From: an uncultured Bacteroidales bacterium
GTDB lineage: Bacteria; Bacteroidota; Bacteroidia; Bacteroidales; ML635J-15
NCBI GenBank assembly: GCA_905234755.1
Contig: CAJOIT010000002.1
Coordinates: 26,405 to 90,404 of the forward strand
Direction: 5' to 3'
Length of the DNA stretch: 64,000 nucleotides
Position numbers and translations under genes: made by a program. The notes under the pieces were generated by a model that searched no databases, was not told the origin of the DNA, and worked only from the letters and a program-made list of their open reading frames with translations. The first letter of the stretch is position 1, and every line of letters starts with the position of its first letter. Below are positions 9,655-47,932 of the stretch, one piece after another.

Positions 9655-9658
9655 TCCA

Positions 9659-19177: not shown

Positions 19178-22100
19178 TTAATAAACTATAGTTACCGCAC
19201 CCTTGTATGGTTCATCGTCATTGAACAAGTCGATTACATACAGATATGTTCCAGCTGGTACGAAATGACCTCTGTAGCTTCCATCCCAAGGTTCTGCATA
19301 ACCCTTAGATGTGAACATCAATTGACCCCAACGGTTGAATATATGAACCTCAGCAGCCGGGAACATTTCAATGTTGACGATTTCCCATGTATCGTTAACG
19401 CCATCGGCATTAGGTGTAAATACATTAGGAATACGCAAGCAGTCAACATCCACATCGGTCAATGTTATCAGCATTTCAGTTGACTTACAGTTGTTTCCAT
19501 CAACTACGCTAACCACATACTCGCCAGACGGAATGTTCTGCAGATATGATACATCAGATGTGCTATTGTTCAAGCTGTACAAATAAGGCTCGACACCACC
19601 GACAGCACTTACATTAATCTTACCTGTACGGCTATTCCTACAGAATGGATCCTCAACTTCCACATTCATTTGCAGTGCATCGGGTTGAGGAACAAGAACT
19701 GGCTCGCTTACATCGCAGTTGTTGTTATCAATTACATGCAATACATAGTATCCTGCGCTCAAATTGTTGAATACGCTTATGTTTGACTGTTCAACAAGAC
19801 CTTCTATCATGTAGCGGTATGGGAGGACACCACCTTCTGCAGTAACCTCAATACGACCTGTCTTGTCGCCATTACATTTAATCTCACCAATAGTTGTTTC
19901 AACATTTATTGCCGCAGGCGCTTCAAGTGTTATTGTCCTAGCAACAGAGCAACCTGCTGCATCAGAAATTGTCACCGAATATGTACCCATGCCAATGCCG
20001 GAGACTTCACTTTCGTGGGTAGAATTGCTCCAGAAATATTCGTAAGGAGCCATACCACCGAATGCAGAAACTACAATGCTACCATCCTTTGAATTATGGC
20101 ACAACGGCGCTTCTGAATATACCTGGACATCCATTTCCTGCGGTGATACAAGATTTACACCTGCCTGACCAGTACATCCCCAAGCATCGGTAACTGTTAC
20201 CATATATACACCCGCAAAGAGGTTGTATAGTTCAGGAGATACATTTCCTGTATTCCATGAATAAATAGCCGGTTGTGCAGCATTCGGACATACAGCAGCA
20301 ATAGAACCATCGTTGAAACCGCTACAACTTACAGGCTGAGTAACTGTTGCATTTACAGAAAGCATGCCCTGCATCGATACATTTGCCTCGGCACTTGCCA
20401 TACATCCGTTTGCATCTATTACTGTAAGTCCATAGGTTCCAACTCCGAGGTTATCATTCGTCATTTCCGTTATTCCATTCGACCATACATAAGACTGATA
20501 TGGTAATGTTCCTCCGATTACCGAAGCGGTCAACGAACCTTGCGAAACACCGCAGTTGATGTCGCGGACATTGATAGTCGGACGAAGTTCGAGTGGCTGA
20601 ACTATTGCACAAGGCAATACTGCGGAGCATCCGCCATTATCGGAAACCGTGACAGAATAGCCACCAGCGACAAGATTGTTTGCTGTCATACCCGACTGTC
20701 CATCACTCCATTCGCAGAAGTATGGCGGATTTCCACCTGTAGCTGTTACTGATGCAGTAGTGCTACCACCATAGCATAATACAGTGCCAGGTGTCACTTG
20801 CGGAACAAATTCAGGAGCCCTAGTAATTGTTATACTAGCAGTACCTTCACATCCGTTAGTTCCTGTCGCCGTTACAGTGTATAAATCATCTGCATATACG
20901 GTGGTTGTCGCCGTTGTCGCATTGTTCGACCACAAGTAAGAATCAACAACACCAACTACATTCAAATCGATAGATGTTATAACGCAATTCAGTTCTGTAC
21001 CTGGAGTACTTGTAATACTTATAATTGGAGCATCAAAATCCTGTCGCAAGGTTATGCTTGCTGTTGACTGACATTCGTTAACTGCAGTTACAGTAACAAT
21101 ATATTGACCTCCAGCTGTCAATGTTCCATGATCGTCATCGCCAGTGTAGTTGCTACTCCACAAATATTCGTATGGTCCATCAGCACCACTAACTATTACC
21201 GTAATTGGCATGCTTGGATTATTACAATCCAGAGTAGTAATATCGCCAAGTCCATTATTAATAGTTACTTGCGGAGTATCATGGTTGTCTGCTACCGTTA
21301 TAGAAGTAGTTTCAATACAACCGTTGAAACCAGTTGCGGTAAGATAGTATACTCCACCTGCCAAGAATGTATTGGTCTGTGATGCCGGAGTTGTACCGCC
21401 CGACCACATATACGACTGAGCATTACCAACAGCAGTTACAGTAACTCTCGATACTGCACAATTAAGTTCCAATCCATTCGGAGTATCAAAGTCATAAAGT
21501 GTTGGCGGTTCCAAATTGCTGTCAATAGGTATCTGAGCAGATGCTGTACAACCATTGCGTGCTGTAACAGTAACTGTATAAGTACCTGGGGTTGTTACAT
21601 ATTGTTCAGGACCACCACCCCACAAAGCATTGCTCCATGCGAAACTATATCCACCCTGGGCAATAATATGTATTGAATCCAAATTACATGTAAGAACTGT
21701 TTCTCCTGTAATATTGTCGATTCTTGCATCAGGTGGGGTAAAGTTGTCGAGCATCTCTATACTAACCTCATTTTCGCATCCGTTAATACCCTGAACTGTA
21801 ACAGTATAAATACCAGCCTGAGATATTGTTATAGACTGTGAGAAGTCTCCATTATCCCACAGATATGTACCTCCGCCAACAATATTGGCAGTCAAATCGA
21901 CTGTTCGGTGAGCACAATCAAGTGCTGGATATGAAGGTGTTATAGAAGCCTGAGGTACTGTAAAGTCTTCTGTAATAACAACGCTTGCATAATTAACACA
22001 TCCATTTGCTCCTGTTGCAGTTACAGTATAAGAACCAGCAGCAGTCAAATCAATTTCCGCACCTACATGTCCGCCTGGCCATTCGTACGAAACACCTGTT

Positions 22101-25100: not shown

Positions 25101-28100
25101 GCACTTCCTGGTGTTACTGTCGGACTGATGGTAATGGATGAGGTTGTGGTCGATGCTGGCATACCAGGTGTTATGGTATGTGTTGCATCGCTTTCGGTAG
25201 TGCATGTCCAACGATACTGGCTGAATGATGCCGGATTAGCTGTCAATATAACCGATGAGCCGTTGCATATTTCGTCATCAGATGCATCAATAGTAACATC
25301 TGGCGTATCGTAGATTGTTATCGAAACAGCCATATCATCGTCTGTACATGGAGCTGTTGCACCTGTGGTAGTAACAGAGAAATCGAAAGTACCAGTTTCT
25401 GTTGGCGTTCCGCTCAATGTCAGCGTATGAGCAGTATTGTCAAGGCTTGACTGAACGCCAGCAGGCATTGTTCCATTAACAGAAAGGCCTGTTGCACCTC
25501 CACCGTAAGTAAATACAATGCTACTCAATTCGGTTCCAAGGCAGAAACTCTGTGTTGTATTTCCTGCTACATCCAATTCAACGCTTTCGCTAACTACTAT
25601 TATTCCATACCTTTCTGCAGGCTTACATGGTGGTATTACACCGGTTGTTGTTACAGTGTAACGGAATGTTCCTGTTTCAGTCGGTGTACCATAAATAGTA
25701 ACGGTATGCGCTACTGTATTTACGGTAAAATCAAGACCAGCAGGCAATGCATCCGCAAGCGTTTGCTCGTCTATTCCAGTTGCTCCACCGCCGTAGGTGT
25801 AAACTATATTTGTGAAAGTTTCTGGGAGACAAATGCTCTGGTTGTCGGTTCCAGTTGCCGATGTAAGCAAAAGTGTTGCGTTTGTAGAAATAGATATTGT
25901 ACCGGATAGCGACTTGTTTTCACATGGCTCTTCAACTCCAGTTGTCGTTATCGTATAATCATATTCACCAGCCTCAACACCCAATGATGGCGAGCCATAA
26001 ATAGTCACTACATTACCAGATACTGATGCTGTAATACCATCAGGCAAACCTGTTACTACTGCTCCAGTAGCAGCGCCACCGAAAGAGTACTGAATGTTTT
26101 CTGCCCATGGAACTTCGACACACAATACTGCATCTGGCGAATCCGAAAGCAAGGTCAATTCGGCTGGATCACTTATGGCAATCGTAGCCGTAGTACTTAC
26201 ATTTGAACAAGGAGATGTAGCACCAGTTGTAGTAACTGTAAATGTTCCCGCAGCTGTTGGTGTTCCACTTACAGTCAATGTGTGAGCTGTTGTATTGAGT
26301 GATGATGTAAGTCCAGCTGGCAAGTTGGTTGCTTCAGCGCCTGTTGCTCCCGTATATGTGAACACAAATTCTGTAATATTGGAACCTTCGCAAACTGTTT
26401 GCGGTGAATTACCAGATGTTAGTTCGATTGTTGCAGGATCTGTAACCGTTATGGTACGCGTTACTGAAATATTATCGCAAGGCGATACTGCACCGGTTGT
26501 TGTTACCGTATAATTATATGTTCCTGCGGTCACATTGGTTGTTCCAGTAATTACTATAGTATGGTTAGATGTGTTAACATTGAATTCCAATCCTGTTGGA
26601 AGGCCAGTAACATCGGCACCATTTGCTCCTCCTCCGTATGTGAATACTATGTTTGCAGAAGATTCGCCCTTACACAATGTTTCGCTACCTGATGTATAAG
26701 AAAGTGTTGGAAGCGGATTTACAGTGATTAACATTGTGGTTATTGTTGCACACTGACCGAAATCAGGAGTAAATGTATAAGTATTGGTTCTGTTGGTAAT
26801 TGCCGGCGACCACGAACCAGTTATGCCATTTGTTGATGTTGTTGGCAAAGCATCAACGGTTGTACCTTCGCAATATGGACCAGCCTGATCAAAGGTAGGA
26901 GTTATATTACCTTCGTTGACAATTATACGACCGGTAACGGTTTGCTCCGTACAACGAAGTCCTGTTTGGCTAACTGTTGTTATAGTATAATTATAGGTAT
27001 TATGAGTTGTCGGAGCACCAGAAATGGTAACTGTATTTCCAGATATGTTCATTGTAACACCATCCGGCAAACCGGTTACCGTTGCACTTACAGCCACACC
27101 GCCCAAAGTATACACTATATCAGTTAATGCCTGACCTTCGCAAACTGTCTGTATTTCCTCTCCTGAAACATGAGTTATTGTAGGTGCTACGGCAGTGTAT
27201 GTAAGCGGGATATTTGTAGAACAACCAAGATTATCCGACAATATGATATTGCAAGTCTGCTCAGTATTAGTTGCGGTTTGTGGTTCAATTGTCATATTGT
27301 TGCCTGCAACCGTAGCAATGCTTCCGCAGTCGTTCGAAACACCTTCGAGGTCAACTGTATAATCCCAGTTGCTTGGCAAAAGGTCTTCCGAAAGTGATAT
27401 TTCCCAGTCGAATACATATCCGTTGTCTTCTGCCCAGCTGTCGCAGACAGAAATTGACCATGTTCCATTTAGTGGACAACCAATAAGGTTGGAGAAGTTC
27501 TGGAATGGCTGATACATTTGCGTTCCTGCATCTACATTGGATGGTATTATATGATGAAGCGTAGTTGTTTCCGCAACTCCGTCGTCATATACTGTTGTCG
27601 AAGAGGACATGTTTGCCACATTATAAACATAGCCAACTGTAGTGTATTGTGAATTGCTTGTCCATGCATAATCGTAACCTACACCATGTATATTGTGTTC
27701 GTTGCTTCCATCGCAAATTTCCGCGGATGTCAAATCATCGCCATCACTAACATCATATAAGTCAGGCTCACCAAAATAAATTCTAGTGTATCTGCCTTCA
27801 ACGGTATAAGATGAAACCACACCGTTTCCTCCACAAACATATGTGAGGAAATACTGTGCCGCCTCCTGAGAAGCAAACGAAAATGCATTGTTTTCTGTTG
27901 TATTGTCGCGTGTCAGCCATACTATATAACCTTCATCACCTTCATATGTATATCCTATTACATAATACAATGTATTATCATTGCCATCCGTAATTCTATA
28001 AACAACATAATCTCTACCTGAATAATAGCGCGACAAGTAATTAGTTATAAAGTCTTGAGCATCTGTTCCGCTACTGAACGAAGCCAAATAATATGTATAT

Positions 28101-31100
28101 CCGCCTGTTGTATATGCTTCGTTCTGGTCCTCAAACACCTCATAGCGGCCTAGCATATGCTGACCTGTGTACCAGTTGGTTGCAGATGTTCCAACATGCC
28201 AACGAGTTGTAGTTACTCTATCCGGCCATACATATGTATATGGGTCAATTGCATTGCTGCTATATACATCGCTTTCTGAGTCGTTGCTGTAGTAGTCCTG
28301 CAAAATTATAGCAGAACGACCATTAGGACATGTAAGTTTTATCTGCACATCACCGATGAACGAATGTTCCATATTGAGGCGAACATACTTTATTGCATTA
28401 ACATTAGTTACAACATCGCCATCATTGAAATCGTAGAAAGTAACATCTGATGTATAGCACTGCGTAGCACAATTCAATCCATCAGGGATGAAAGTTGTTT
28501 CGGCATGACCAAGAGATGTTTCAATTGTATGAGGTTCCGGATTGACTTGAATGTCGGAACCTGTACCGCCGATTGTGATTTCACGGCTGTCTCCGACACA
28601 TATATTACCAAGAGCATACGAATCCAAGCTTGTTTCCAATCCGCCCGACACACGGATTCTTCCGTATGCAACGGTTGAACATTGTCCCTCTGATACAGTA
28701 AGCGATACATCGTAGCCCTGCTCTGCACCCGGAGTATATGATGCATTCTGTGTATTTACAACATATGGAGCGACACCGCCGTGAGGATTAATGCTCCATC
28801 TCCACGATGGATTGGTGTAGCCAGTCTGTGTACCACCCATATTTACACCAGAACCAAGACATACATCGAAATAGTATCTGTCACCAATAACTTCGGTGTA
28901 ACCTGTCATAGCCACTGTCGCATCAGGACAATCGATTTGGCATTCTGGAGCATCAATATAAGTTATTCTCTCGCAGTTTGTTGTTGACGAAACAAATGAT
29001 GCTGTTATAGTATGTTCCTGTCCATCACCCTGTATTCCGCTAAGCGAATATGAAATAGGGCTTACGAAAGGAGGTGTGAATACCTGTGATACTGAACCAT
29101 CAGAAATTGTAAGAGTACCGTCAACCGGCGGATCGGTAAAGTTGATATTACCACTAACCGAGAAAGTCTGGTCGGTACTGCAATCGCCAACTATTGTTGT
29201 AATGCTTGATATGCTACAGTCATTAACAATTGTACAGTCGGAACGGCCAGCATTGGGATCATTGAGATTTGTCTGGTTCATCGTTATTGTGCCGGTACAA
29301 CCAGCAAAGTTTGCGACCACAACAATATAAATCTCCCCTTCCTGTGCATTTGTAATTTGCAAATACTCATCATGAGAAGTAGAACCTCCATAGTCAACAA
29401 GGTTTCCGCTAGGAACTGCCAAGGCAAAAGTTCCATTAATATAAGTGCTTGTAGTTGATGAAGTAGGCGTTGTTCCTCCATACGAAGTGCCATAGTATGT
29501 AGCCTGATCTGCTCCGGAATAATACGAATAGTCCGTTCCATTTGTCAAGTCATTTGTGCGGTCGCAGGTAACATTGTCAAATGGTCCCCAGCAACCGAAA
29601 TCGACATCACCACAATCGGAATGAATTGTCATATTGATAGGACCGGGTTCGGAAATACGCAGGAACCACCAAGTAGGACTATGAGTAAGGAAACTACCTA
29701 TTCCGCCTTCGGTGTCATCTTCTGTATCACTAATTGTCAAAATGTATTCTGCCACATCGTTTGACGCGCAAAAAGCCATAGCCGATTCGCAATCGGGACT
29801 ACCGGTAATCTCTGGTGGCGTGCTGGAGTACTGGGCATACAAAGTTACATCTGCACAGCCCAAATCTACAGTTGCCCCAGCAGTATAAGAAGTTCCCGAG
29901 CCATCGGCAGCGGTATTCCAACCGTGGAAATATGGCAGTGAGGAACAAGTGGGTTCCGTAGATGTAACAATTGCGGTTGTTCCTGTTGCACCAGAAGGTG
30001 CAGCACTTGCCGTACCACCTGCACAATTTGTGGTAGTATTATAAGTTAAACGATGTGAAGTTCCCGTTACAGTAACAGTATAAGAACCAGTTGCACCACA
30101 ATAATCACCACTAGTAGCCAATCTTGCAGTAATGACTGCCGTACCTGTTGAATGTGCTGTTACTACACCTGTTGACGACACCGTCGCTACATTCTCATTA
30201 GATGATGACCAAGTAATAGTACCAGAAGTACTGCCGCCACTAATTGTAGGATTCTGCGAAGTTGTTCCTGTACAACTTGATATGTTTACATTAGAATTAT
30301 TGAAGGTCAATGTTCTTTGTATACAGTCATCTATACAGAATTTCATTTCTGGACGTTGCGAGGTAGTTGATCCTGTTGAAGTTGACACATTGTTGCCATC
30401 AAGAGTTACTGATGAGGAGGAATTAGTACAATATGCCGTCATATTATCAACACTCGTATAATAAAAATTAGGATATGTTGTACCACTTGGAGTAGTATTG
30501 CTTGTTCGCCTAATAGCTACCAATATGTTACTAGCCCCATCCCAGTAAAGACCTGCCGAACTTATATCAATGCTCGTCCACTCGTTAATAAAGCTAATAG
30601 TTCCAGAATATACCAATGTCAAACCAGCATCTGATATCCAAGAAGTGGGAACTGCTGTCTGGGAAGTAAATCCAACATAGACCTCAAACGACAAAGCATT
30701 TGTTGTGGTTTCCGCATAGTGTAACGCAAGCGATCTAAGCGTTCCTGCAAAAGCACCAGCTGCAGTTAATTCGGTAGCAGTATATAGTTGCTGAGTATAT
30801 GCATAATAATTGAAATATGTATATATACCGCCATAAGTTCCTGAAGATGACGAAGTAGAACCAGTACCAATTCTTGCACATCCATCATTAACATTCACAG
30901 TCAGATACAATATCTTATGACAATAAGCAGAGTTAGAAGGAGTATATTCTATTCTAATAGTTGTAGATCCTTCCGCTACTCCTGTTATCACACCGTTAGT
31001 TACTGTTGCAACTCCAGTATTAGACGATGTGTAAGAAATCGTTCCTGAAGGTGTAAGCGTATTGGTAAGGGCATTAGAAATATTATATGTACTACCTGCT

Positions 31101-32596: not shown

Positions 32597-32607
32597 AGTC
32601 GTATGTT

Positions 32608-33464: not shown

Positions 33465-33466
33465 AA

Positions 33467-36600: not shown

Positions 36601-39600
36601 CATATTCATAGAAATATATGTCATCGGCAGACGGATTCGGGCAGTAGTTTTCGTCAAGGCCAACGCTTACAGTCCAAGTCTTTGATGTTACACCATCCTC
36701 GGCAGTAACTATATATTCTACGGGTACTGAGAAATTACGCTGCACACCGGACTGCACATTGACAGTAGCATTCTCCGAAATTGTGAAGGTCGGAGTAAAA
36801 TACATACTGTTAGACACGCTAGCAACATAAACCGATATGGTAGCATTTTCCGAATCTATAACCGATTCTGCAGTCTGTTCCGGAACTTCGAAGGTAAGAA
36901 TTTCCGCTTCACTACTCATAGGTCTCAACAAGATATTGTCGATTGAACATTCGCGGTAGCCGCTCAATACAAAGTCGAAACGAGCCTCGCCCACATACTG
37001 CGGAACATTTATCGACATCCTAGTCATTCCGTTGCTTGACGCATTCTGTATAGCAATAGACCTTAACGTATCGGTTCTATAATTGTTTACATACAAGACA
37101 AACAGCGAATCGGGACGAGTAATATTTTGTGTTGACTGCAATACATCAAATTCGAGCGAATAGTGTACATCGGCGGTCAAATTGAATCGCGGTGACAGCA
37201 AATGAGCTTCGACCTGCGAATTTCCGTATGCCAAATGAGCCACTCCATCGCTTACCGACCAAGTATTACGTCTGTTGCTTGTAGTTCTCCAGCAATCGGG
37301 AAGTTCGCCATTGGCGACTTCGAAATCCTGTGTATATGGCAAATCAACTATCTGGCAATCGGTTGTTGCCTCAACAGTTGCACTGTACCAGTCGCTTTCT
37401 ACACCTGCAACGCAAACGCCTTGGATTTCTGCAGAAATATTGTAGCTGACACCCGACTGAAGTCCACCGATTGTCAAACGCGGTTCGTCAACAGTAGCTT
37501 GAACGGCAGCACCGCCGTCGATTGAATACCTCACAAGCCAAGTTCCATTTATGGCATTTATATCCGACCATGCCAATACAACACTCTCTTCTCCAACCGA
37601 CTCGACAATCAAATTGCGTGGAGCAATACAATCGACAGCCTGGTCGATTGTCAGATTGTCGACATAAACGCCACCTGCATTGTTTGCCTTTCCGACAAGT
37701 ATCACATAATTGATTCCGACACCCGTTCTTGCATTAAATGTGTAGGTGTACCATCCTGCCGACAATTCTTCGCCGACTTCATCGCCATCCGACACAAGAT
37801 AGTTCTTCGAGATATAGCCGAGTTTCTGCGGATTGCCGTTTACGATGTCAGGATAACTATTAACCCATACCTCCACGCCTTCGTCGGCTGCAGAAGCGGA
37901 ATTTGTCGAGCGGTAAACATCAAGACTTATGGAGTATCCGTTGATTGTTTCGGCAAACTTGATTGCCGTAGATGCCAAATTGTGTACCGAACCAGCCCTC
38001 GTATCGGCAAGCAAAGCCTTTGGAGTAGAGTTGTCGCCTACAACAGCCGAAGCACTCATCCATGCTCCGTTAATATAGCTTACGCCCGTTCCAGTACCGG
38101 CAGCTGTCCTTTCTTGCGACCAGCATACCGGAGGGAATACATCCGAATTAAAATCTTCGATGTACGGGAAATTCCTTACAATTATACAAGGTGTGGTAAA
38201 CTCTATTTCAGCATAGACTGAATTTTCGTTGTCGCACAAAGTGCGTACCCTAACATTGTATGTTGTAGAAAGCTGAAGATCTGTCAAGGTAACAGTTGTT
38301 TCATCAACGGTAAATGTAGTGTATTCAGAATCCGATTCCTTCTTGTAGCCGACTTCCCATTGCGTCATATTGAAGCCCAACCACGACAAGGTTGCTTCAT
38401 CGTCATATATATTCGAAGCCGTCAAACCTTCCGGATACTGGCATGCTGCAATCGTTGATGTAGAAAGTAATGACCATTCGCTGTTGCCATTTTCGCCTGT
38501 ACAGTTTGCACGGACATAAATATCGTATGGCGTTGATTCTGGAAGTCCAGTAATTTCGTAGTGAGTATCGGTAAGGCTAACCTCTGTGCCTTCGGTATCC
38601 AAATCGAAGCCCTGATTTCCATACTTCAAAGTCCAGTTGTCACCCACATTGTCTGACGACCATGTAACATCGAGTTCATTTTGCAAACGAACTGCGTCCA
38701 AATCGTTAACAACATAACAATGTGGCAATGCATATATCTGAATTTCATACGAAACATCAGCACCATCACTATCAATAATTACGTATGTAGAACCTGCAAG
38801 ACAATCGACAGAGAACGATGCATTGGTCTCATTTGTCTTTGAGTCAACCATATACGAATACAATGAACCGCAATTATTCATTACGAATACATTGAAAACT
38901 CCGCTGAACGAATGCGCATCAATAACAAGCATCTTCCTTGCCTGCAAGTCAATCCTATATACCGCATCGTTGCCCGGAAGTTCAAATCCAAACTCAGGCC
39001 TATCGGTGTAATAAGTGTTTATCATATTGTACAATCCCTCGGTTGTAGCAGAATTGAAATACGGCAAATCGTTTTCGGCATCAACCACATACGGATTTGA
39101 ACAATCGGCACCAAGAGGAGAATCAATGTATGTAACATTTATGATCCAGTCCTTTGTATCCACTCCATTTTCAGCAGTAACTGTAAATACTCGCGGATTC
39201 GTGAAGTCGTAAGCCCTGCCCTCGATCTGATTTATGCTTGCCAAAGGCGAAATTTCTATTGTAGGTACAATAGATGTAATGTCGTACATGCGGCTAAGTG
39301 TTGCATTGACGGTTGCATTATCGTGATCAATTGTAACATCGAACAAACCGTCCGTCCAGAACGATAGGATTTCTACATCGGCAACAGCATCCCGCCTTGA
39401 AACCATTACAGTCCATTCCTGGGAAATTCCCGATTCAGCCGTAACCGTATATACAAATGGATATGAAAGGTTTACAGCCTCTCCGCTTTGCGGACTTATT
39501 GTTGCAAGATCAGAAATCTCTATTTGCGGAGTTACACCTCTCAAGTTCCACGAATACGGAACATCGCAGGTAATTATATGATTTTCGGTGTCAATATGCA

Positions 39601-42600
39601 CATTGTCTGCACCATCGAATGCAAACGAAAGAATATCGTTTTCATCGGACAGACGTACAATCGAGATATTATCGACAGCAGCAGGGAAAGGTGATGAATA
39701 ATAATTGTTAAACCATTCAAACACAACAAAATAGTTACCACTTTCCAACGAATATACATTACCTGAGAATCTTTCCCATGTAGACGAAGCAGAATTAACA
39801 AAAGATCCTACATATATCCAATTATCATAGTCATATACAAGTTCAAACGGAGAATTTGACTCATAAGGTACAAGGTACACACCCATTCCATTATATATTT
39901 CGGTCGTACCATAATAACTATATTCCACACCATCACACAGCCAGTCGAAAGAAACATTAATGCCACCTGGAGAATCCATATTAATAGCAAAATAAGCGTC
40001 CGAATAACTAGATCCGCTATTATTAAAACCGTATGTAGCTCCTCTGTCATTTGAAACATACATCGCCCTTTCACCATCGCGCGAAACAGCCGTACCAAAA
40101 TACCATCCGTTAGATTCATTATCTCTGCGCCATCCCTGAATATAATCAGATTCAAAATCCTGATAATATGGCAACGACATGATATTAATATCTGGCGTTT
40201 CAAAATATAAATGCGTCCATGAACTATGCTCGTAATCGCTACAGCCAGGAGAAATATAAATGTGGTACCCCTGTCCCGGTTCAGGCAAATCCAAATTATA
40301 ATCAAGCGAAGTTGAAGTTATATAATACGATTCGGCATTAATCTCATCATCAGACATTTCTGTAAATGACGGATACAAAAGATAACTGCTGTAAGAATAC
40401 GGGGAGAACCATGAAATATATGCATTATCCTGCAAGACATCGGCTGTAAGTCCATATACCGGCTCGCAAGGTGGCAAGGTAGAGAACCTTACAGCTCTCG
40501 ACCATGGACTTTGTTCCGATTCGGAGCAATAGGTGCGTACAAATACATAGTAGTTGCCATTTGGATAATCTGGATTTTCATCAAGGTTTTCGGCTACATA
40601 CGACATCGTAGAAACCAACACCGGACTTTCGGTAGCCTCATCGGGATTGTCTGACATAGTTACCAGCACCTGCCACTGCGAACCTGTAGCCGATGTCCAC
40701 GAAATGTCAGCGGAATTGCGAGTGATGTTATCCACACTAACATTACCCTCGAACATACAGTACGAAACATATTCAACGCTTATATTATCGATTGCACCCG
40801 GCGGATCGTCACGTTCACGATTATTATCAGACCAGAAGAATACCAAATAATAGTCACCAGGTTCCATTATATTATGTTCCTTGGAGTTGGTATGCCAGTT
40901 CCATCCATCGCTAACTGAATATTCAGACAAAGCGTTAATATCCAACGCATTTATCCATCCATTAGGTGATGACAAACTATTACTCATTCCGTTTGCATTT
41001 CCCGCGTTTAACGACGGATTCAAACCAACAGGAATAAGGAATGGCCTTACGCTATGATGATAATACCAGCCCACACATTTCCAGTCCAACTTAACCCTAA
41101 CTACTCCTTGCCGATCGAATCTCAGGCGACAATACGCATACGAATAATCCGTTGTGTTTGTCCAACAATATGAATTATTAGCACCACCATCCATGGATAC
41201 ATACATTGACCAGTCGCTATTGTTTCCTGTTGCTGTACCCAGATACCATCCGACTGTATTGTTACTGGTCACCCAGTTTTCAACCACTCCATCCTCGAAA
41301 TCCTCATAGTATGGCAATGGCAAGGCTTCAGTTTCAGGCGTTGTAAATGTAGTGTGTACCCAGTCGCTTATTTCGTTGTCGCCACAATCAACTGTAACAT
41401 AAATGTGATATGTGTGTCCCGGCGTTAACGAATTATCCGTATATGTTGTCGCTCTTTGTTCTAAATACTCGGCAGAAGCAAGTTCTACATCTGTTAGTTC
41501 AGTTTCCGATTTTACTATACGGTAATTGGTAACATCATACGGATGCCTCCATGAGAGGTCAACGGAACTAGGCCTTACAAAAGCCTTAAGTTCGTATATC
41601 GGCTCGCAAGGCGGCAAGGTGGTGAAAGAAACACCGCCTACCCACGAACTTTGTTCCGATTCGGAACAATATGTACGAACAAATGCCTTATAACGTGTAT
41701 TGGGGTTAAGTCCACCAACATTGGGAGTCAGGCTATTTACAAGCACTGGTGTTTCTGTAGCCTCTTCGGCATTATCTGCTGTCGTTACCAATACCTGCCA
41801 TTGCGTAGCAGCGCCATCATAATCATACGATAGCGCTACCGAATTCTTGCCCACCAAGGTAACTGCTATATTTTCAGGGAACAAACAAGTAGACGCGACT
41901 TCAACACTTATGTTGTCAACTGCAGCTGGAGGCATTGTACCAACACCACCATCATTCTTCCAGAAGAATACCAAATAATACTCTCCGGATTCACGCAGTG
42001 CAACTTCGCTTGACGACCTCTGCCACGATGAATTCCTTCTTAATAATTCTGAAGCTTCAATCCAACCTTCAGGCGCCGTATTTGTGCTGGAAGTCATACC
42101 ATTGGCTTCTCCTGCCACAAGTACTGGATTTACAGATGCTGGAATCATATATGCATGAAGCAAATCATAACTACTTTCACCGTAACACCACCAATCGAAC
42201 GAAACATTCACCACTAAAGGATAATCGGCACGCAAACGACAATATGCATAAGAATACGATGTATTATTAGTTGTATAAGTATTTGTCTCTCCATAATCAG
42301 ACGAAATATACAGTGATTTATCTCCAGTATTTGCTACTGCATTACCTTCATACCAGCCATTTGAATCATTGTTAAGATGCCAGTTCTGCAACACATCGGA
42401 CTCGAAGTCCTGATAGTATGGCAAAGGCATTACCTCATCGGACTCTGTTGTAAACTGGAAATACGTCCAGTCGCCAAAACCATCGTTGCAGTCGGCACTT
42501 ATATAAAAGTAGTATGTCTGGTTAGGCGTAAGACCATCTGCATAATACGACATTACTGCACTTGTATTAACAGTAACATATTCTTCCGAACCTAAAGCTT

Positions 42601-45600
42601 CAAGTTGACTTTCTGTCATTGTTGTAGGCGAAACATACACATGGAAGTTATTTGTATATGGATGATCCCAAACAATTCTAGCCGATGTAGCAGACAGAAC
42701 ACTCAAATGAATATCGGTTGAGCCTACACATGGTGGCCATGTAGTAAATTCTACCCCTTCCGACCACGGACTTTGATGCTCTGCAGAACAATACGCACGC
42801 ACATACACATAATACTGGGTGTTCATTTCCAACCCGCCTACCGTTGCAGAAGTAGTATTTACACTAATGGGCGATTCTGTTGCTAACGCGGGCTCGTTCG
42901 ATGCGCTTACAAGCACCTCCCATTGCGATACCCCTTCGACATCTGTCCACGAAAATTCCACAGAAGTCCTGTCGTAATCATTAACGGCAACATTCACTAC
43001 AGGCAAGCAATACGGCAATGTCGCAAACTCCGATTCATACCATAATCCCAGATTCGTTGCCGAGCAGTATCCACGAAGATATACATGATAATCTGTTTCG
43101 GGAATAAGATCGTTAAGCGTATATGATGTATTTTCAACTAATATTGGCATTTCAGTTGCTTCGTCAGGATCGCTGGCTGTTGTTACCAATAACTGCCATT
43201 GCGAAACATACTCGCCATCCGGCCACGAGAAAGTAGCAGAAGTCTTGCCTATATCCGAAACATTTATATTTCCGCTATACAAGCATGACAGCGGGGAAGT
43301 GACATGCAGATTGTCAATTGCCGCCGGCGGCTGATATCCGTAACCACCATCATTTTTCCAATAGAATGCCAAATAATACTTTTCTTCTGTCAGAGTAAAC
43401 TGCTCTGACACAGTTGACCAATTACTATTACCAACCAAACCACCACTAACACTTATCCAACCGCTTGGTACACTGCCGTTATATATATACTCAGTGAATG
43501 TAGGCTCCAATGAAACAGGGATAAGGAATACATTTAAATAATCATCAATATAATAATAGTAACTCTGATAATAATCTCCGTTACATTTCCAGTCGAACGA
43601 CACATTTACAATACTCGGCGTACCGATATTCAGACAACAAAATGCATAAGATTCCGATGTGGAACCAAGATCGTAATGATTAGAGCCACCGTTATTATCG
43701 GATATATACAACGAATAAGAACCTCCGCTAGACGTTCCGGAACCGACATACCAGCCGTTTATACCGTTCCTCATAACCCAATTTTCTACAGCACCTGACT
43801 CAAAGTTTTCATGATATGGCAAATTTTTAGCTTCCAACGGAAGGTAAAACTCTGCGCTTACCCAGTCGCTATACTCTGTCTGTCCACAATATGAACGTAC
43901 ATACACATAATAGCGGGTCATAACAGGAAGATTGGAAACCGTATAGCTGGTATTGCTGAGAGTCACAAGGCTGGCTTCTTCCAAATCGCTATCACTCATT
44001 TCCTCTTCCGAAATATACAACTGGTATGATGTCGACAATGTACCGCCTGTCCATGTTATTGTTGCTCGTGTCGGAGTTGTCGCCACAGAAAGGTTTGCAA
44101 CCTTACAATCGGGGGTATCAAATTCTACAGCACTGCTCCATTCGCCGTAATTATATTCGGAACAGCCACTACGTATATATGCATAATAATGAGTATCAGG
44201 AGTAAGACCTGTTATTGTCTGTGTCGTCGATGTCATTACAACTGGCGATTCGGTTGCCGCCTCGGGATCCGAAGATGTAGTCAGCAATACCTGATAACCT
44301 AAACCACTACCGGACGTGCCTGTAATTTCTACAGAACTACTTCCCAGTACGTTTGCACTCAACGAAGCTGTAGCCGTACAAGGTTCTGCAATCTCTATGT
44401 CATCCACAGCAGCAGGTGGTGAATAAGTGCCGGAACCATCGTTCTTCCAGAAAAATACCCAATAGTAGTCTCCTGCAGTGCTAATGTCAATAGTCCTACT
44501 GCTAATCTGCCAATCTGAGTGTAAAGAAAGCTGTCCTTCAGGATTAGCCACATCAATCCATCGGGAAGGCGTCGAATTGCTAGAACCACTCTGATTATTA
44601 GAATAGCCCCCATTAAGTACCGGATTTACACTTGTAGGAATCAAAAATGCTCGTAGTAAATCCCACCTTGATTCTCCATTGCATTTCCACTTGAACGACA
44701 ACAAATAACTGCCGGCATTGGCGAAATTGATTAAACGCCATGCATATACATACGAAACATCTCCCGTATAATAGTTTGCTGAATTGTTGTATGTAATATA
44801 AAGAGAATTGGACGGACTGACACTTGTATAACTGCCGATAATCCAGCAATTTACCTGGCCATCATTTGCCAATGTCCACTTTTCATTTTCAGTACTATTT
44901 TCAAAATCGCAGGTATATGGAATAGTAGCTGGAGGCACTCTAGGAATAAACTCAATAGCACTACTCCATTCGCCATGAGTTGATTCGGTGCAATAAGCCC
45001 TGATATAAGCATAATAGTGTGCTAATGGTGTCAGACCAGTAATTTCCTGCGTGTCAGAAGTCATCAGAATGGGTGATTCTGTTGCAGTAGCAGGATTTGA
45101 CGAAGTTGAAACCAAAATTTCGTACTTCACGCCATTACCTGATACGCGCGTCAGCAATGCACTACTAGGACTTAGAACATTAACGCTTAATTCGCCCGTA
45201 GCACCACATGAAGTAACAAATCCTACAGCACTGCTCCATGGTCCATACATATCCTGGGTACAATAACTGCGTATGTATGCATAATACTGAGTTTCTGGAG
45301 TAAGACCTGTTATTGTCTGCGTTGTCGATGTCATAGCAACTGGCGATTCGGTTGCCGTAGCAGGGTTCGACGAGGTTGAAACCAATACGTCATACTTTAC
45401 GCCATCACCAGACGCACGCGTCAATGATACCGATGTTGAACTCTGGACATTAGCAGTTAAAGTAGCGGTCTTATCACATGTAGTAACAAAGCTTACCGCA
45501 CTGCTCCATGGTCCATACATATCTTGGGTACAATAACTGCGTATGTATGCATAATACTGAGTGGCTGGTGTAAGACCGCTTACCGTTTGCGTTGTCGATG

Positions 45601-47932
45601 TCATAGCAACTAGCGATTCGGTTGCCGTTGCAGGATTCGACGAGGTTGAAACCAATATGTCATACTTTACGCCATCGCCAGACGCACGCGTCAATGATAC
45701 TGATGTTGAACCTTGGACATTAGCAGTTAAAGTAGCGGTCTTGTCGCAACTGGTAACAAAGCTTACCGCACTGCTCCATGGTCCATACATATCTTGTGTA
45801 CAATAACTGCGAATGTATGCATAATACTGGGTGGCTGGTGTAAGACCGTTCACTGTTTGCGTAGTCGATGTCATAGCAACTGGCGATTCGGTTGCCGTTG
45901 CTGGATCTGACGAGGTCGAAACCAATATGTCATACTTCACGCCATCGCCAGAGGTACGCGTCAATGATACTGATGTTGCACTTTGGACATTAGCAGTTAA
46001 AGTAGCGGTCTTGTCGCACGTTGTAACAAAACTTACAGCACTGCTCCATGGTCCATGCGTGTATTCTGAACAATAGCTGCGTATATATGCGTAGTATCGT
46101 GTACCAGGGATTAAGCCTGTTATTGTCTGTGCAGCGGAAGTCATCGCAACCGGCGTTTCAGTTGCGGCTTCGGGATCAGATGAAGTGGAAACCAGAATTT
46201 CATACTTTACACCGTTACCCGATGTACGATTAATCGATGCAGAAGAACTTCCAGTTGAACTAGCATTTATTGTTGCGATTTCATTACAAGGTTTTGCTAT
46301 CGAAATGTCATCGACAGCCGCTGGAGGATTTGTACCGGCACTATCATCATTCTTCCAATAAAACACAAGAGTATATGCTCCGGCAGTTGAAATTGTGATA
46401 GTTTTTGTTGAAGTAATCCAATCACTTTCACGATTAGTCCACAAGAACACTCCCGATGTATTGTAACTTTGTGAAACATCGGCCACATTAATATAACTGG
46501 TGGCAGGAAATGAATTTGTACTGCCAGAAACATTACTGGCTGGCGGAAATGTAGTACCCGATGGCACCAACGCGGCGTACATGGCATCCCAGCAACCACT
46601 TTCGCCTCGAGCTTTCCACTTGAACGAAACTACATAATCGCCAGTATTGGCAAAATAAAATGAACGATATGCATATCCGTACGAAGAACTACCATTATCA
46701 TAGGAATACGAAGAACCATCATTAGTTATATACAAAGAATTAGAACCGCCACTGCTCGTACCACTTCCAATCATCCAGTAGTTTGTATAAGAACCATTTG
46801 AGAATGTCCAGCGACCATTTTCAGTACTATTTTCAAAGTCACAGTAATATGGAGGCGCACCGATAACACTTTCCACCTTCACTGAATATTGAGCTTTTTG
46901 TGAAGAATAATAATTATCCGCTATAAGATAATAGGTTGTACCGCCAGTCAACGAAAGAGATTTTGCCCCAGAATTCCAACAATTACCAATTACATTTGTT
47001 CCTGTATTTCCATAAGAAGACATCAAGAAGAAATCCGGGTCGCCTGAAGGTTGAGCCGCTGTAAAAACATACGAACCGGAAAATGGCGGCGTGAAAGAAA
47101 AAACATGCTCTTCTCCAGGTTCTTCGTAACCACAACTTGTGTATGTATTCCAAACACTAACAGTTCCCAATGTTCCTGTATATGTAACCCCAAGTTCCAT
47201 AGGTGTAACAGGATCAAACAGATAGTATCTGCCAGCATCAGGCCAAGTAGAAGCTGCTATCGTAGTACTCTGTCCGCTTGTATAATGCGTCATATTATGG
47301 GACGCATCCACCAGAATTATATCATTGCCTCCTGTGCACATACCATGCTGGCATACAACTGCAGGATTTACAGAAGGAAGCGAAGACGGATAAATTACAA
47401 TTATCTTGTTTGTAGTTTCATACAACTGCACCTGCCAAGAGTATATGTTTCCTCGCGATGACGAGTTATAAGTGGTTGTTGCAAACTCGATTACACAAAC
47501 CCTATTAGGAGAAGTTCCCAGCACCTCATACTTAACATACCCACCATCTGCTTCAGAAGGCATATAGCCGTCGCAACCGAAAAAGTTTATCTTCGGAGCA
47601 TTTGATGCAGCATTAGAACTGGAAAAAGGACTACTATAATTATACGTTCCAGTCACAGTTTCGCCAAACTTCAGGTTACCATCGGCATTTACAGAAAATT
47701 GCGTATAATTTGTCGCACCAAACTTAAATGAAAAACCTAAGTCATGTACAGCAGAAACTGCATAATCTCCTCCACCGGTCAGGATTGTCGTTGGACTTGA
47801 AAACGTTCTCCACAGACTAGTATTCGTACCTGTAGTAAACTTATAATCTGCCAATGATTGTCCAAATGCTGTAATACTAAATGACATAACAGCCATCAAA
47901 ACAAAAATACCCAAGCATATTTTATTTCTCAT
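33599..47932 (-). CDS. Giant (about 4,777 aa) modular FN3 / jelly-roll / B-repeat surface protein, T9SS type A cargo
   Basis: Uninterrupted 14.3-kb ORF. The ORF-track start at 47956 is TTG. The ATG at 47932 gives the signal peptide MRNKICLGIFVLMAVMSFSITAFGQ. I count 9 MAM/choice-of-anchor-J-like jelly-roll modules, 18 FN3 units, 3 cadherin-like sandwiches, 2 PPC-like domains, 9 B-repeats and a Por_Secre_tail domain. Confidence 0.9.
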   Translation of the reverse strand: MRNKICLGIFVLMAVMSFSITAFGQSLADYKFTTGTNTSLWRTFSSPTTILTGGGDYAVSAVHDLGFSFKFGATNYTQFSVNADGNLKFGETVTGTYNYSSPFSSSNAASNAPKINFFGCDGYMPSEADGGYVKYEVLGTSPNRVCVIEFATTTYNSSSRGNIYSWQVQLYETTNKIIVIYPSSLPSVNPAVVCQHGMCTGGNDIILVDASHNMTHYTSGQSTTIAASTWPDAGRYYLFDPVTPMELGVTYTGTLGTVSVWNTYTSCGYEEPGEEHVFSFTPPFSGSYVFTAAQPSGDPDFFLMSSYGNTGTNVIGNCWNSGAKSLSLTGGTTYYLIADNYYSSQKAQYSVKVESVIGAPPYYCDFENSTENGRWTFSNGSYTNYWMIGSGTSSGGSNSLYITNDGSSYSYDNGSSSYGYAYRSFYFANTGDYVVSFKWKARGESGCWDAMYAALVPSGTTFPPASNVSGSTNSFPATSYINVADVSQSYNTSGVFLWTNRESDWITSTKTITISTAGAYTLVFYWKNDDSAGTNPPAAVDDISIAKPCNEIATINASSTGSSSASINRTSGNGVKYEILVSTSSDPEAATETPVAMTSAAQTITGLIPGTRYYAYIRSYCSEYTHGPWSSAVSFVTTCDKTATLTANVQSATSVSLTRTSGDGVKYDILVSTSSDPATATESPVAMTSTTQTVNGLTPATQYYAYIRSYCTQDMYGPWSSAVSFVTSCDKTATLTANVQGSTSVSLTRASGDGVKYDILVSTSSNPATATESLVAMTSTTQTVSGLTPATQYYAYIRSYCTQDMYGPWSSAVSFVTTCDKTATLTANVQSSTSVSLTRASGDGVKYDVLVSTSSNPATATESPVAMTSTTQTITGLTPETQYYAYIRSYCTQDMYGPWSSAVGFVTSCGATGELSVNVLSPSSALLTRVSGNGVKYEILVSTSSNPATATESPILMTSDTQEITGLTPLAHYYAYIRAYCTESTHGEWSSAIEFIPRVPPATIPYTCDFENSTENEKWTLANDGQVNCWIIGSYTSVSPSNSLYITYNNSANYYTGDVSYVYAWRLINFANAGSYLLSFKWKCNGESRWDLLRAFLIPTSVNPVLNGGYSNNQSGSSNSTPSRWIDVANPEGQLSLHSDWQISSRTIDISTAGDYYWVFFWKNDGSGTYSPPAAVDDIEIAEPCTATASLSANVLGSSSVEITGTSGSGLGYQVLLTTSSDPEAATESPVVMTSTTQTITGLTPDTHYYAYIRSGCSEYNYGEWSSAVEFDTPDCKVANLSVATTPTRATITWTGGTLSTSYQLYISEEEMSDSDLEEASLVTLSNTSYTVSNLPVMTRYYVYVRSYCGQTEYSDWVSAEFYLPLEAKNLPYHENFESGAVENWVMRNGINGWYVGSGTSSGGSYSLYISDNNGGSNHYDLGSTSESYAFCCLNIGTPSIVNVSFDWKCNGDYYQSYYYYIDDYLNVFLIPVSLEPTFTEYIYNGSVPSGWISVSGGLVGNSNWSTVSEQFTLTEEKYYLAFYWKNDGGYGYQPPAAIDNLHVTSPLSCLYSGNINVSDIGKTSATFSWPDGEYVSQWQLLVTTASDPDEATEMPILVENTSYTLNDLIPETDYHVYLRGYCSATNLGLWYESEFATLPYCLPVVNVAVNDYDRTSVEFSWTDVEGVSQWEVLVSASNEPALATESPISVNTTSATVGGLEMNTQYYVYVRAYCSAEHQSPWSEGVEFTTWPPCVGSTDIHLSVLSATSARIVWDHPYTNNFHVYVSPTTMTESQLEALGSEEYVTVNTSAVMSYYADGLTPNQTYYFYISADCNDGFGDWTYFQFTTESDEVMPLPYYQDFESDVLQNWHLNNDSNGWYEGNAVANTGDKSLYISSDYGETNTYTTNNTSYSYAYCRLRADYPLVVNVSFDWWCYGESSYDLLHAYMIPASVNPVLVAGEANGMTSSTNTAPEGWIEASELLRRNSSWQRSSSEVALRESGEYYLVFFWKNDGGVGTMPPAAVDNISVEVASTCLFPENIAVTLVGKNSVALSYDYDGAATQWQVLVTTADNAEEATETPVLVNSLTPNVGGLNPNTRYKAFVRTYCSESEQSSWVGGVSFTTLPPCEPIYELKAFVRPSSVDLSWRHPYDVTNYRIVKSETELTDVELASAEYLEQRATTYTDNSLTPGHTYHIYVTVDCGDNEISDWVHTTFTTPETEALPLPYYEDFEDGVVENWVTSNNTVGWYLGTATGNNSDWSMYVSMDGGANNSYCWTNTTDYSYAYCRLRFDRQGVVRVKLDWKCVGWYYHHSVRPFLIPVGLNPSLNAGNANGMSNSLSSPNGWINALDINALSEYSVSDGWNWHTNSKEHNIMEPGDYYLVFFWSDNNRERDDPPGAIDNISVEYVSYCMFEGNVSVDNITRNSADISWTSATGSQWQVLVTMSDNPDEATESPVLVSTMSYVAENLDENPDYPNGNYYVFVRTYCSESEQSPWSRAVRFSTLPPCEPVYGLTADVLQDNAYISWFSPYSYSSYLLYPSFTEMSDDEINAESYYITSTSLDYNLDLPEPGQGYHIYISPGCSDYEHSSWTHLYFETPDINIMSLPYYQDFESDYIQGWRRDNESNGWYFGTAVSRDGERAMYVSNDRGATYGFNNSGSSYSDAYFAINMDSPGGINVSFDWLCDGVEYSYYGTTEIYNGMGVYLVPYESNSPFELVYDYDNWIYVGSFVNSASSTWERFSGNVYSLESGNYFVVFEWFNNYYSSPFPAAVDNISIVRLSDENDILSFAFDGADNVHIDTENHIITCDVPYSWNLRGVTPQIEISDLATISPQSGEAVNLSYPFVYTVTAESGISQEWTVMVSRRDAVADVEILSFWTDGLFDVTIDHDNATVNATLSRMYDITSIVPTIEISPLASINQIEGRAYDFTNPRVFTVTAENGVDTKDWIINVTYIDSPLGADCSNPYVVDAENDLPYFNSATTEGLYNMINTYYTDRPEFGFELPGNDAVYRIDLQARKMLVIDAHSFSGVFNVFVMNNCGSLYSYMVDSKTNETNASFSVDCLAGSTYVIIDSDGADVSYEIQIYALPHCYVVNDLDAVRLQNELDVTWSSDNVGDNWTLKYGNQGFDLDTEGTEVSLTDTHYEITGLPESTPYDIYVRANCTGENGNSEWSLLSTSTIAACQYPEGLTASNIYDDEATLSWLGFNMTQWEVGYKKESDSEYTTFTVDETTVTLTDLQLSTTYNVRVRTLCDNENSVYAEIEFTTPCIIVRNFPYIEDFNSDVFPPVCWSQERTAAGTGTGVSYINGAWMSASAVVGDNSTPKALLADTRAGSVHNLASTAIKFAETINGYSISLDVYRSTNSASAADEGVEVWVNSYPDIVNGNPQKLGYISKNYLVSDGDEVGEELSAGWYTYTFNARTGVGINYVILVGKANNAGGVYVDNLTIDQAVDCIAPRNLIVESVGEESVVLAWSDINAINGTWLVRYSIDGGAAVQATVDEPRLTIGGLQSGVSYNISAEIQGVCVAGVESDWYSATVEATTDCQIVDLPYTQDFEVANGELPDCWRTTSNRRNTWSVSDGVAHLAYGNSQVEAHLLSPRFNLTADVHYSLEFDVLQSTQNITRPDSLFVLYVNNYRTDTLRSIAIQNASSNGMTRMSINVPQYVGEARFDFVLSGYRECSIDNILLRPMSSEAEILTFEVPEQTAESVIDSENATISVYVASVSNSMYFTPTFTISENATVNVQSGVQRNFSVPVEYIVTAEDGVTSKTWTVSVGLDENYCPNPSADDIYFYEYGDSADIYIYPANNETSYNLKISSQPIDPETETAELFDGIIEPDSVGYGWRRSVIEGLDAYTYYYIYVQSNCGATGWTEKTACGIFTLPYEQDFSDVDCWEIDDYNNDGRTWSIANGEAMYTFSRTNQADDYLVSPKLQILQNAKLEFKYKAGNFSYPETFLVLVSNGNDTVQLDSLTVSNETYQTYGPVDLSDFAGQLVDIEIQCKSEANRYRLYIDDFKVLVSDYVINVSSEGNGTISPDGIVEVAPGESAEFAIVPDEYNDLLSLTLDGEDVSDEVVDGIYTLADVNAEHTLIATFTERYTFTASAGEGGHIVTDGVTVAEHGDTVSFVVIPDEGYRPGDVIVDGIAEQLEQGSYIYTFENVEASHTIHATFNQIIYHTIHVVAGDNGLVSPSGDVVVEEGENLTISVIPYDDFIIREFLVDGVDAVEELIAHGYNYYFENITADHNVQVSFVENVYYPIAVSYGEHGTITPNGDVSVENGTDQTFYIVPDAGYHIVSVTVDDEDVPSAVAEGEYTFVNVTEDHTIHAEFAINTYTIVAYAQGGTITPSGTITVNHGDNLTLEFEPEAEYELLNFLVDNISQDVEGNSYAFDSITADHAVVAIFTPMNIIRHEITATAGVHGSISPSGRVRVVDGESQTFQIIPDEHYYISSLLVDGEAVDVADSYQFQNVTADHTISASFEVYKHVVTAIAGEHGSVNPSGEQEVDEGSDITFTFAPSVGYIVSEVLVDDISVEFTGNSYTLQNVLEDHVVRVNFDLLPMWSITAVSGANGSITPNGTQYVLNGDDIEFTFVPNDGYMLDRVVVDGQGFSPESNTYMFENVTENHYIYVSFRPLVYFITAEAGPHGELSPSGIVEVEPGATQVFTFNPYIGYELDSVFVDGEYIITDGNTYEFADVNENHTFRVTFKHIAVGVADEVAVSTSLYPNPNDGRFMVDFAGISGNLVYQLVNASGAIIEERDIYVDEGMTMEFYHELRPGVYFARFVSGDKVLVERFVVE
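33602..33838 (-). other. T9SS type A C-terminal sorting domain (Por_Secre_tail, TIGR04183-like)
   Basis: SLYPNPNDGRFMVDFAGISGNLVYQLVNASGAIIEERDIYV...LRPGVYFARFVSGDKVLVERFVVE. Confidence 0.85.
33839..35935 (-). repeat. 9 tandem InlB-B-repeat-like units (about 78 aa)
   Basis: Recurrent pattern Y.I.A.AG..G.ISP.G...V..G....F.I.P..GY.....VDG........Y.F.NV...H.I...F. Confidence 0.6.
39125..39645 (-). other. Two cadherin-like/DUF5018-like beta-sandwich modules
   Basis: ILSFAFDGADNVHIDTENHIITCDVPY...VTPQIEISDLATISPQSGEAVNLSYPFVYTVTAESG..EWTV, plus a second copy. A third copy lies at about 36655-36915. Confidence 0.4.
44961..46310 (-). repeat. 5 tandem 270-bp units (90-aa FN3); the central three are near-identical
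   Basis: The string ctgctccatggtccat recurs at 45231, 45501, 45771 and 46041 (period exactly 270). Protein copies 2-4 differ at 7-8 of 90 residues. Confidence 0.9.

Follow-up and report, generated by a model that had tools for sequence, protein, structure and literature searches.

The window analysed here, 64 kb of DNA from an uncultured Bacteroidales bacterium, contains two giant genes (gene 1 and gene 2) that lie on the same strand and are separated by a small open reading frame (ORF). These three genes probably constitute a lineage-specific cassette of rumen Bacteroidales that makes two long, acidic, non-enzymatic surface fibrils, most likely adhesins. Each giant ends in a C-terminal sorting domain (CTD) for type IX secretion (by the T9SS), of type B in gene 1 and type A in gene 2, and the order type A giant, terminator, promoter, small ORF, 11-nucleotide (nt) spacer, type B giant is kept in relatives wherever the context is readable. 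The three genes are as follows, with lengths in amino acids (aa) and isoelectric points (pI).

19178-32596, minus strand: gene 1, ATG start, 4,472 aa, 470 kDa, pI 4.05, 116 Cys; T9SS type B cargo protein
32608-33216, minus strand: small ORF, 202 aa, with a signal peptide, a ββαββα domain and a disordered tail
33599-47932, minus strand: gene 2, 4,777 aa, 526 kDa, pI 4.1; T9SS type A cargo protein

Conservation and transcriptional organization of the cassette

An earlier, sequence-only reading had described two same-strand ORFs of 4,472 and about 4,777 codons, and both are uninterrupted on the minus strand, together covering 27.8 kb. The frame of gene 2 is open as far as a TTG at 47956 (33599-47956, 4,785 codons). 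Its in-frame ATG at 47932 gives the 4,777-residue protein, beginning MRNKICLGIFVLMAVMSFSITAFGQ... with a classical signal peptide, and one public gene call places the start 12 codons inward at 47896 (4,765 aa). Both products are strongly acidic (pI ~4.1), with a high content of Thr, Ser, Gly and Asn. ORFs of this kind, taken from a short-read metagenome-assembled genome (MAG) and in one case carrying an internal 270-bp tandem repeat, might be assembly chimeras or products of repeat collapse. We give this explanation almost no credence: orthologous frames are open over all of the fetched DNA (10–11 kb each) in >12 independent assemblies from different hosts, which is independent evidence against an assembly artefact or a frameshift. 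In addition, the tandem repeat copies are just 87% identical, and the G+C content of both giant genes (0.40–0.44) is like that of their flanks.

Conservation was followed in seven lineages, namely the window and six species-level MAG representatives (L002–L007). The window itself belongs to a 559-kb MAG scaffold (ENA ERZ28573574, scaffold_3). The relatives are Bacteroidales or Bacteroidia MAGs, and the labels of several give the rumen of yak, water buffalo or red deer as the source. Identity to the orthologues in L002–L007 is 56–79% for gene 2 and 60–76% for gene 1, and the order giant, small ORF, giant is found in 6/6 of these MAGs as well as around the two most distant homologues of the small ORF (~50% identity), where the flanking giants measure 4,466/4,481 aa and 3,721/4,181 aa. 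Wherever the context can be read, the small ORF stands between a Por_Secre_tail giant and a CHU_C giant, and its family was never met outside the three-gene cassette. The suggestion that the adjacency of the giants is more than a chance neighbourhood is thus borne out by all six species-level relatives and the two distant homologues.

A different account of this synteny is that the giants are functionally unrelated and that their adjacency persists through shared ancestry in a narrow clade only. It draws on the separation of the giants into different transcription units with a strong terminator between them, on the lack of shared module types (apart from one marginal cross-match), and on the confinement of all relatives to one Bacteroidales MAG group that is rumen-derived where a source is named. 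Against it stand the retention of gene order down to ~50% identity in the small ORF and 56% in the giants, replacement of the downstream flank at least three times over that same range, and the restriction of the small-ORF family to the cassette. On balance we judge this account unlikely, with a minor but real share of the probability, and favor a conserved cassette.

The elements that define the transcription units, and the gene beyond them, are listed here.

33436..33463, minus strand: gene 2 intrinsic terminator, 12-bp stem with 7 GC pairs, then T8
33313..33320, minus strand: promoter box TAAATTTG, Bacteroidota -7 type, ~95 nt before the small-ORF ATG, in a conserved block
32597..32607, minus strand: spacer from the small-ORF stop to the gene 1 ATG, 11 nt, TAA-AACATACGRCT-ATG
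19124..19154, minus strand: terminator of the small ORF–gene 1 operon, 13-bp stem plus T-run
18127..19047, minus strand: WYL+WCX regulator gene, a neighbour outside the conserved cassette

A terminator hairpin of the gene 2 kind occurs in 6/7 lineages, as does the promoter box (L004 has TACATTTG in its place), and the 5′ leader of the small ORF is highly conserved in 7/7. The -7 consensus of Bacteroidota is TAnnTTTG; boxes of this form are not enriched across the window (60 vs 59.6 expected), so that only the conserved position before the small ORF carries weight. The 11-nt spacer is invariant in length, and nearly so in sequence, in 7/7 species. Together, the terminator, the promoter block and the spacer indicate that gene 2 is a unit by itself and that the small ORF shares an operon with gene 1. 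This agrees with the earlier proposals that the giants are separate transcription units, each followed by a terminator, and that the small ORF is coupled to gene 1.

The same reading had counted the WYL regulator as a member of the locus. The gene itself is confirmed as WYL+WCX, and its membership did not hold. It follows gene 1 in the window, in L008 and in L009, the latter two being the closest relatives, and is kept only at this level of relatedness (86–88% identity), being absent from orthologous loci at 66–70% identity; the terminator separates it from gene 1. In other relatives the gene after gene 1 is MiaB-like (L010), DUF4301 (L011) or BipA (L012). Because the downstream flank varies in this way, the WYL gene is not part of the conserved unit.

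The intergenic DNA around the terminators has further features of its own. Arrays of a 7-bp simple repeat (CCATTRT / CAATTGT, 5–12 units) lie beside terminators at 33545-33605 (plus strand), 48096-48182 (minus strand) and 5665-5697 (plus strand), and similar arrays are present in L004 (9298-9332) and L011 (19473-19500). Two of them form an inverted pair around gene 2, 14.5 kb apart and 82% complementary over 61 nt. This inverted repeat (33545-33605 / 48096-48156) was considered as a pair of transposon ends or an inversion site, a reading that we rejected because the arrays consist of simple repeats and occur also at 5665-5697 and, in relatives, at unrelated sites. The 12-mer ATTATCCATTGT, allowing ≤2 mismatches, occurs 33 times against 10.8 expected. 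In L002, a relative from yak reticulum, the last ~30 nt of gene 2 and the terminator hairpin are tandemly triplicated after the stop codon (9567-9800).

Sorting domains and the missing shuttle gene

The C-termini of the two giants were compared with profile hidden Markov models (HMMs) at the curated cut-offs of NCBIfam (TIGR04131, 35 bits; TIGR04183, 23 bits) and Pfam (PF13585 and PF18962, 27 bits each).

19187..19435, minus strand: gene 1 type B T9SS sorting domain (TIGR04131/CHU_C), HMM matches
33605..33826, minus strand: type A T9SS sorting domain at the C-terminus of gene 2, with YPNP and GVYF motifs

Residues 4388-4470 of the 4472 in gene 1 match TIGR04131 with 71.4 bits and PF13585 (CHU_C) with 86.4 bits. 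Residues 4703-4776 of gene 2 match TIGR04183 with 24.6 bits in the scan of the whole protein; because this score is marginal, the last 100 residues were scanned alone, giving 33.8 bits. Both NCBIfam models thus score above their curated cut-offs at the C-termini, in accord with the type B and type A classes first assigned by eye, and the type A CTD is matched in 7/7 of the orthologous gene 2 C-termini. In both giants the CTD ranks with the most conserved parts. Identity among orthologues is 83–92% for the type A domain and 75–93% for the type B domain, compared with 47–87% in the SprB repeats that adjoin the latter. Such conservation argues that both CTDs are working signals.

In characterized systems, type A cargo travels via PorV/PorU and type B cargo via PorP/SprF shuttles, with shared shuttles for orphan cargo (PMC12618676, PMC9143113). 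A type B cargo gene commonly, not obligatorily, has a porP/sprF shuttle gene directly downstream (PMC12618676), and type B cargo proteins are anchored via PorP-like proteins, as SprB is through SprF (PMC9143113). Gene 1 has no PorP/SprF gene after it, either in the window or in L008–L012, the five relatives with visible downstream DNA; the sequence-only reading had overlooked this point. Nor was a PorP/SprF gene or T9SS component found among the 21 flanking window ORFs that were scanned. The 306-aa gene downstream of gene 1 was considered as a candidate shuttle and ruled out, as it is the WYL+WCX gene. With no shuttle gene after it, gene 1 is an ‘orphan’ type B cargo. Some type B substrates are known to be orphans in this sense, and three from Flavobacterium johnsoniae (Fjoh_1123, Fjoh_1720, Fjoh_4934) have the shuttle Fjoh_1677 in common (PMC12618676). 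Gene 1 resembles these in having no adjacent porP/sprF gene and differs in being far larger and in having a dedicated, conserved small ORF upstream; of the two, only the F. johnsoniae case has an identified shuttle.

Modular architecture of the giants

Domain architecture was derived from Pfam scans of whole proteins and of 500-aa segments, together with iterative self-searches. Gene 1 divides, ahead of its CTD, into three parts.

28397..32476, minus strand: variable N-terminal head with a weak PPC-like module, CUB, 180-aa modules, Big_2 and ~550 aa without a family
27257..28399, minus strand: proprotein-convertase P-domain, Pfam match in two stretches
19466..27178, minus strand: stalk with 6 He_PIG-like, ~17 Ig_7/PKD-like and 6 SprB repeats

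The CUB, Big_2, P-domain, He_PIG-like, Ig-like and SprB modules that had been named from the letters of gene 1 were all seen in the Pfam scans. The signal peptide, read from the sequence as MKNIYHIFMNKVMPMRTALVVIFVMLSWSMLAPQMSYA before a Gln and kept in the orthologues, is followed by the weak PPC-like module (E 0.012, aa 41-168, in a permissive Pfam scan), CUB, and two copies of a 180-aa familyless module alternating with Big_2; the ~550 aa without a family then lead to the P-domain. In the stalk, He_PIG reaches 35 bits in a segment scan, the Ig_7/PKD-like repeats are ~75 aa each, and the SprB repeats (PF13573) score 111.9 bits over 5 stretches of the C-terminal segment. The head is the part of gene 1 that diverges most between species: the N-terminal 500–900 aa are replaced or rearranged, with GEVED domains present there in a relative; the stalk and CTD, in contrast, are retained. 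An adhesin is expected to show this pattern, in which the tip varies and the stalk is conserved.

Read by eye, the P-domain appears to be split by an insert of ~290 aa (27350-28270, ~aa 1444-1740), and no S8 peptidase domain was detected beside it. The insert matches no family and no PDB entry, and holds two similar short segments of α/β appearance, ...FSSGTDAQDFITNYL... and ...FASQEAAQYFLTYV.... At the other end of the head, an extension with the motif MKNIYHIFxNKVMP (aa 1-15, 32552-32596) precedes the hydrophobic core of the signal peptide; it is conserved in L002–L007, and better so than the core itself. We considered the extension as an ESPR-like extended signal peptide of the sort found on type V giants and dropped the idea, as there was no Pfam match in six orthologues at E≤10.

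A close known counterpart of gene 1 is the gliding adhesin SprB of F. johnsoniae, encoded in the sprCDBF operon. Both are giant and repetitive, with PF13573 repeats, a TIGR04131 type B CTD and co-transcribed accessory genes upstream. The six SprB repeats, the type B CTD and the sheer size of the protein might therefore be taken to mean that gene 1 is a mobile gliding adhesin of the SprB type, driven by gliding machinery. We regard this as improbable. Neither the window nor any of five relatives has a sprF/porP gene downstream of gene 1, the window contains no gld or spr gene, and SprB repeats account for just ~10% of the protein; gliding is not known from rumen Bacteroidales. The CUB, P-domain and Big_2 head and the He_PIG/Ig_7 stalk also set gene 1 apart from SprB, and the 202-aa gene upstream is familyless in Pfam and NCBIfam, SprC and SprD not having been compared with it directly. 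Among solved structures, gene 1 has a sequence match to one only, the grappling-hook protein GhpA of Aureispira (PDB 9flp, 5,898 aa), another giant, and the match runs from CTD to CTD (aa 4365-4468 of gene 1 vs 5789-5894 of GhpA, E 3.6e-10). Beyond the CTD the two have no similarity, and nothing in gene 1 points to hook-forming oligomers or predation.

Gene 2 is built from a different set of modules.

47858..47932, minus strand: signal peptide MRNKICLGIFVLMAVMSFSITAFG before a Gln, from the ATG at 47932, by reading the sequence
47198..47857, minus strand: N-terminal region, 220 aa, no family match
39656..46852, minus strand: array of six units, each a ~180-aa jelly roll then 2–5 FN3
45205..46210, minus strand: 270-bp tandem repeat in the DNA (3.7 copies at 87% identity) that codes for near-identical FN3 modules
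35918..39637, minus strand: mixed region with three DUF5018-like modules, one paralogue of the module at aa 247-355, 4 FN3 and 3 divergent jelly rolls
33875..35914, minus strand: nine divergent InlB B-repeat (PF18998) modules

The N-terminal region is followed by a 110-aa module (aa 247-355) with its paralogue at aa 2941-3070. Six strong jelly rolls lie at aa 361, 1005, 1372, 1838, 2207 and 2588, in addition to the three divergent ones. Of the 18 FN3 modules in total, 14 belong to the six-unit array, and three of the copies make up the tandem repeat.

The jelly-roll, FN3 and B-repeat modules that had been proposed for gene 2 were all recovered, the jelly roll by its fold; MAM (PF00629), for which a search had been suggested, gave no sequence match. 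The ~180-aa jelly-roll module belongs to no Pfam family; its best Cleaved_Adhesin (PF07675) match, in one of the divergent copies, has E 0.029 and 14.7 bits. An AF2 model built from six internal copies, with a predicted template-modelling (pTM) score of 0.81, gave 96 matches at E≤1e-3 when compared with the PDB by Foldseek. The top matches, at E 5e-6 to 1e-4 and template-modelling (TM) scores of 0.5–0.6, include CBM61, CBM27, CBM16 and CBM4, the module with which pneumococcal hyaluronate lyase binds hyaluronan, MAM domains (from meprin, SR-C and PTPmu) and, from Lys-gingipain, the K1 cleaved-adhesin domain. These matches indicate that the name ‘jelly roll’ is right by fold, and the model places the module in the ligand-binding β-sandwich class. 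Gingipains and HagA thus share with gene 2 the fold of these modules, as do MAM and CBM61/27/16/4, and gingipains and HagA also carry them on a type A CTD cargo protein. Gene 2 departs from gingipain and MAM proteins in having no significant PF07675 or PF00629 match, no protease domain, and nine copies set amid FN3.

An exhaustive HMMER search found the jelly-roll module in 3,919 representative clusters (50% identity), 1,080 of them at E≤1e-30. Most of these proteins are 1,000–6,700 aa long with 2–13 copies, and one cluster, P0074 (4,496 aa), has FN3, DUF5018, B-repeat and a type A CTD, like gene 2. The exhaustive search was used in place of a first profile search, which yielded 4 fragments, listed nothing longer than ~1,200 aa and for that reason perhaps does not report giants.

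Iterative cross-searches of gene 1 against gene 2 returned one marginal match, consistent with the earlier statement that the giants share almost no module types. They had also been called enzyme-less, and this stands at the level of HMMs: no catalytic family was detected in either giant by Pfam or NCBIfam in whole proteins and 500-aa segments, and no PDB sequence match at E<0.01 points to a catalytic domain. The term means no more than this, and both giants have regions outside every family (aa 26-245 in gene 2; aa 302-480, 573-757 and 845-1400 in gene 1, together with the apparent P-domain insert). PDB sequence searches with these regions were empty, and permissive Pfam scans gave the weak PPC match only. 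One or both giants could accordingly harbor an unrecognised enzyme there, such as a glycoside hydrolase (GH) or a protease, in the manner of multi-modular T9SS cellulases. Familyless regions are present in both giants, P-domains normally go with S8 proteases, and the T9SS is known to carry multi-modular cellulases out of rumen Bacteroidetes (PMC5831590). The cellulases of ‘Candidatus Paraporphyromonas polyenzymogenes’ from that study are, like the giants, large multi-modular proteins with T9SS CTDs from uncultured rumen Bacteroidetes; they carry GH catalytic domains, and none was detected in the giants. Since neither a catalytic HMM nor a PDB sequence at E<0.01 is matched, and the familyless pieces are of β-module size with several of them repeated, we consider a hidden enzyme very improbable and retain the view of the giants as non-enzymatic.

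The flanks encode housekeeping functions, as had been noted (Lon, U32, S9 peptidase, acyl-CoA ligase, C69 dipeptidase, MltD-like, FtsH and CdsA). A single tRNA gene at 53487-53560 (plus strand) is the only Rfam match, and a TonB-dependent receptor gene with a CarboxypepD_reg N-domain, followed by a DUF4249 gene, lies at 60243-63625 (minus strand) and is unrelated to the cassette.

The small protein and a model for the cassette

The product of the small ORF has no Pfam or NCBIfam match. Its homologues fall into 66 clusters at 90% identity, all unnamed or ‘hypothetical’, with Bacteroidales MAGs as the named sources. The N-terminal ~90 residues are strongly conserved, and aa 26-110 form the ββαββα domain with a predicted local distance difference test score >90 (AF2). 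The C-terminal ~70 residues are disordered, variable and rich in Q/N/S/K, save for a terminal YNxNSKNK motif. A Foldseek comparison of the model with the PDB returned nothing at E<1e-3; likeness to LuxS and to an RNA-polymerase subunit (TM 0.3–0.5) was judged to be generic α/β similarity and set aside. The protein has no CTD, and the cysteine of the window copy is not conserved, so that it is not a lipoprotein. Having neither a CTD nor a lipobox, it most likely stays in the periplasm.

The structural features of the cassette suggest how its products could reach and occupy the cell surface. Judging from their signal peptides, all three proteins would be exported by Sec. By analogy with the literature, the type A CTD of gene 2 would be taken by PorV from the SprA/Sov translocon and then removed by the PorU sortase, with covalent joining of the protein to anionic lipopolysaccharide (LPS). 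The type B CTD of gene 1 would be taken by an unlinked shuttle of the PorP/SprF type, with non-covalent anchoring; as no shuttle gene adjoins gene 1, it would have to be encoded elsewhere in the genome. The small protein may assist gene 1 in the periplasm, as a chaperone or accessory factor, a guess prompted by its strict linkage and coupling to that gene.

The surface-adhesin role of the giants we infer from their architecture. In gene 2, nine CBM/MAM-like jelly rolls spaced by FN3 would be suited to multivalent ligand binding, probably of glycans. In gene 1, a conserved stalk made of Ig-like and SprB repeats (~30 in all) may carry a multi-lectin-like head that varies between species. The jelly rolls and this head together suggest multivalent binding to glycans or to other rumen cells. 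A β-sandwich module is ~3–4 nm long, and with ~50 such modules each giant could reach well >100 nm from the surface.

Five observations weigh against this reading of the cassette. The CTD of gene 2 scores 25.1 bits on PF18962, under the Pfam cut-off of 27. The 64-kb window contains no gene for T9SS machinery or for PorP/SprF, so that we infer secretion from the CTDs alone. The likeness of the modelled jelly roll to CBMs is moderate (TM ~0.5–0.6), and the fold is equally common to protein-binding MAM domains. Roughly 10–20% of each giant matches no family and could hide an activity, and the small protein has no relative of known function by either sequence or structure. The reading of the giants as surface adhesins nevertheless remains the one we favor. 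A more elaborate proposal, which we offer as speculative and rather doubtful, is that the small protein is a new kind of dedicated periplasmic chaperone or adaptor, by which gene 1 could use the T9SS although no cognate PorP/SprF shuttle is encoded beside it, and that both giants form one composite surface structure. If so, gene 2 would be its covalently LPS-anchored base and gene 1 a non-covalently held partner.

The giants are of a well-described kind, being T9SS type A and type B sorting-domain proteins of the sort represented by giant Bacteroidota adhesins, and the cassette does not contradict current models of the T9SS. What is modestly new is the strictly conserved pairing of a type A with a type B giant, together with the dedicated small ORF of an orphan family and the lack of a shuttle gene nearby. 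The main surface tools with which Bacteroidota adhere, glide and prey are giant T9SS cargo proteins, and next to nothing is known of them in uncultured rumen lineages. Gene 1 is a clean example, provided by nature, of orphan type B cargo, whose exit from the translocon has been addressed recently, in F. johnsoniae only, and the small protein is a candidate accessory protein strictly linked to it. The jelly-roll module of gene 2 is widespread (~3,900 clusters at 50% identity), lacks a Pfam family and probably mediates binding. If the giants bind plant fibre or cells, the cassette would bear on how abundant rumen bacteria attach to feed particles.

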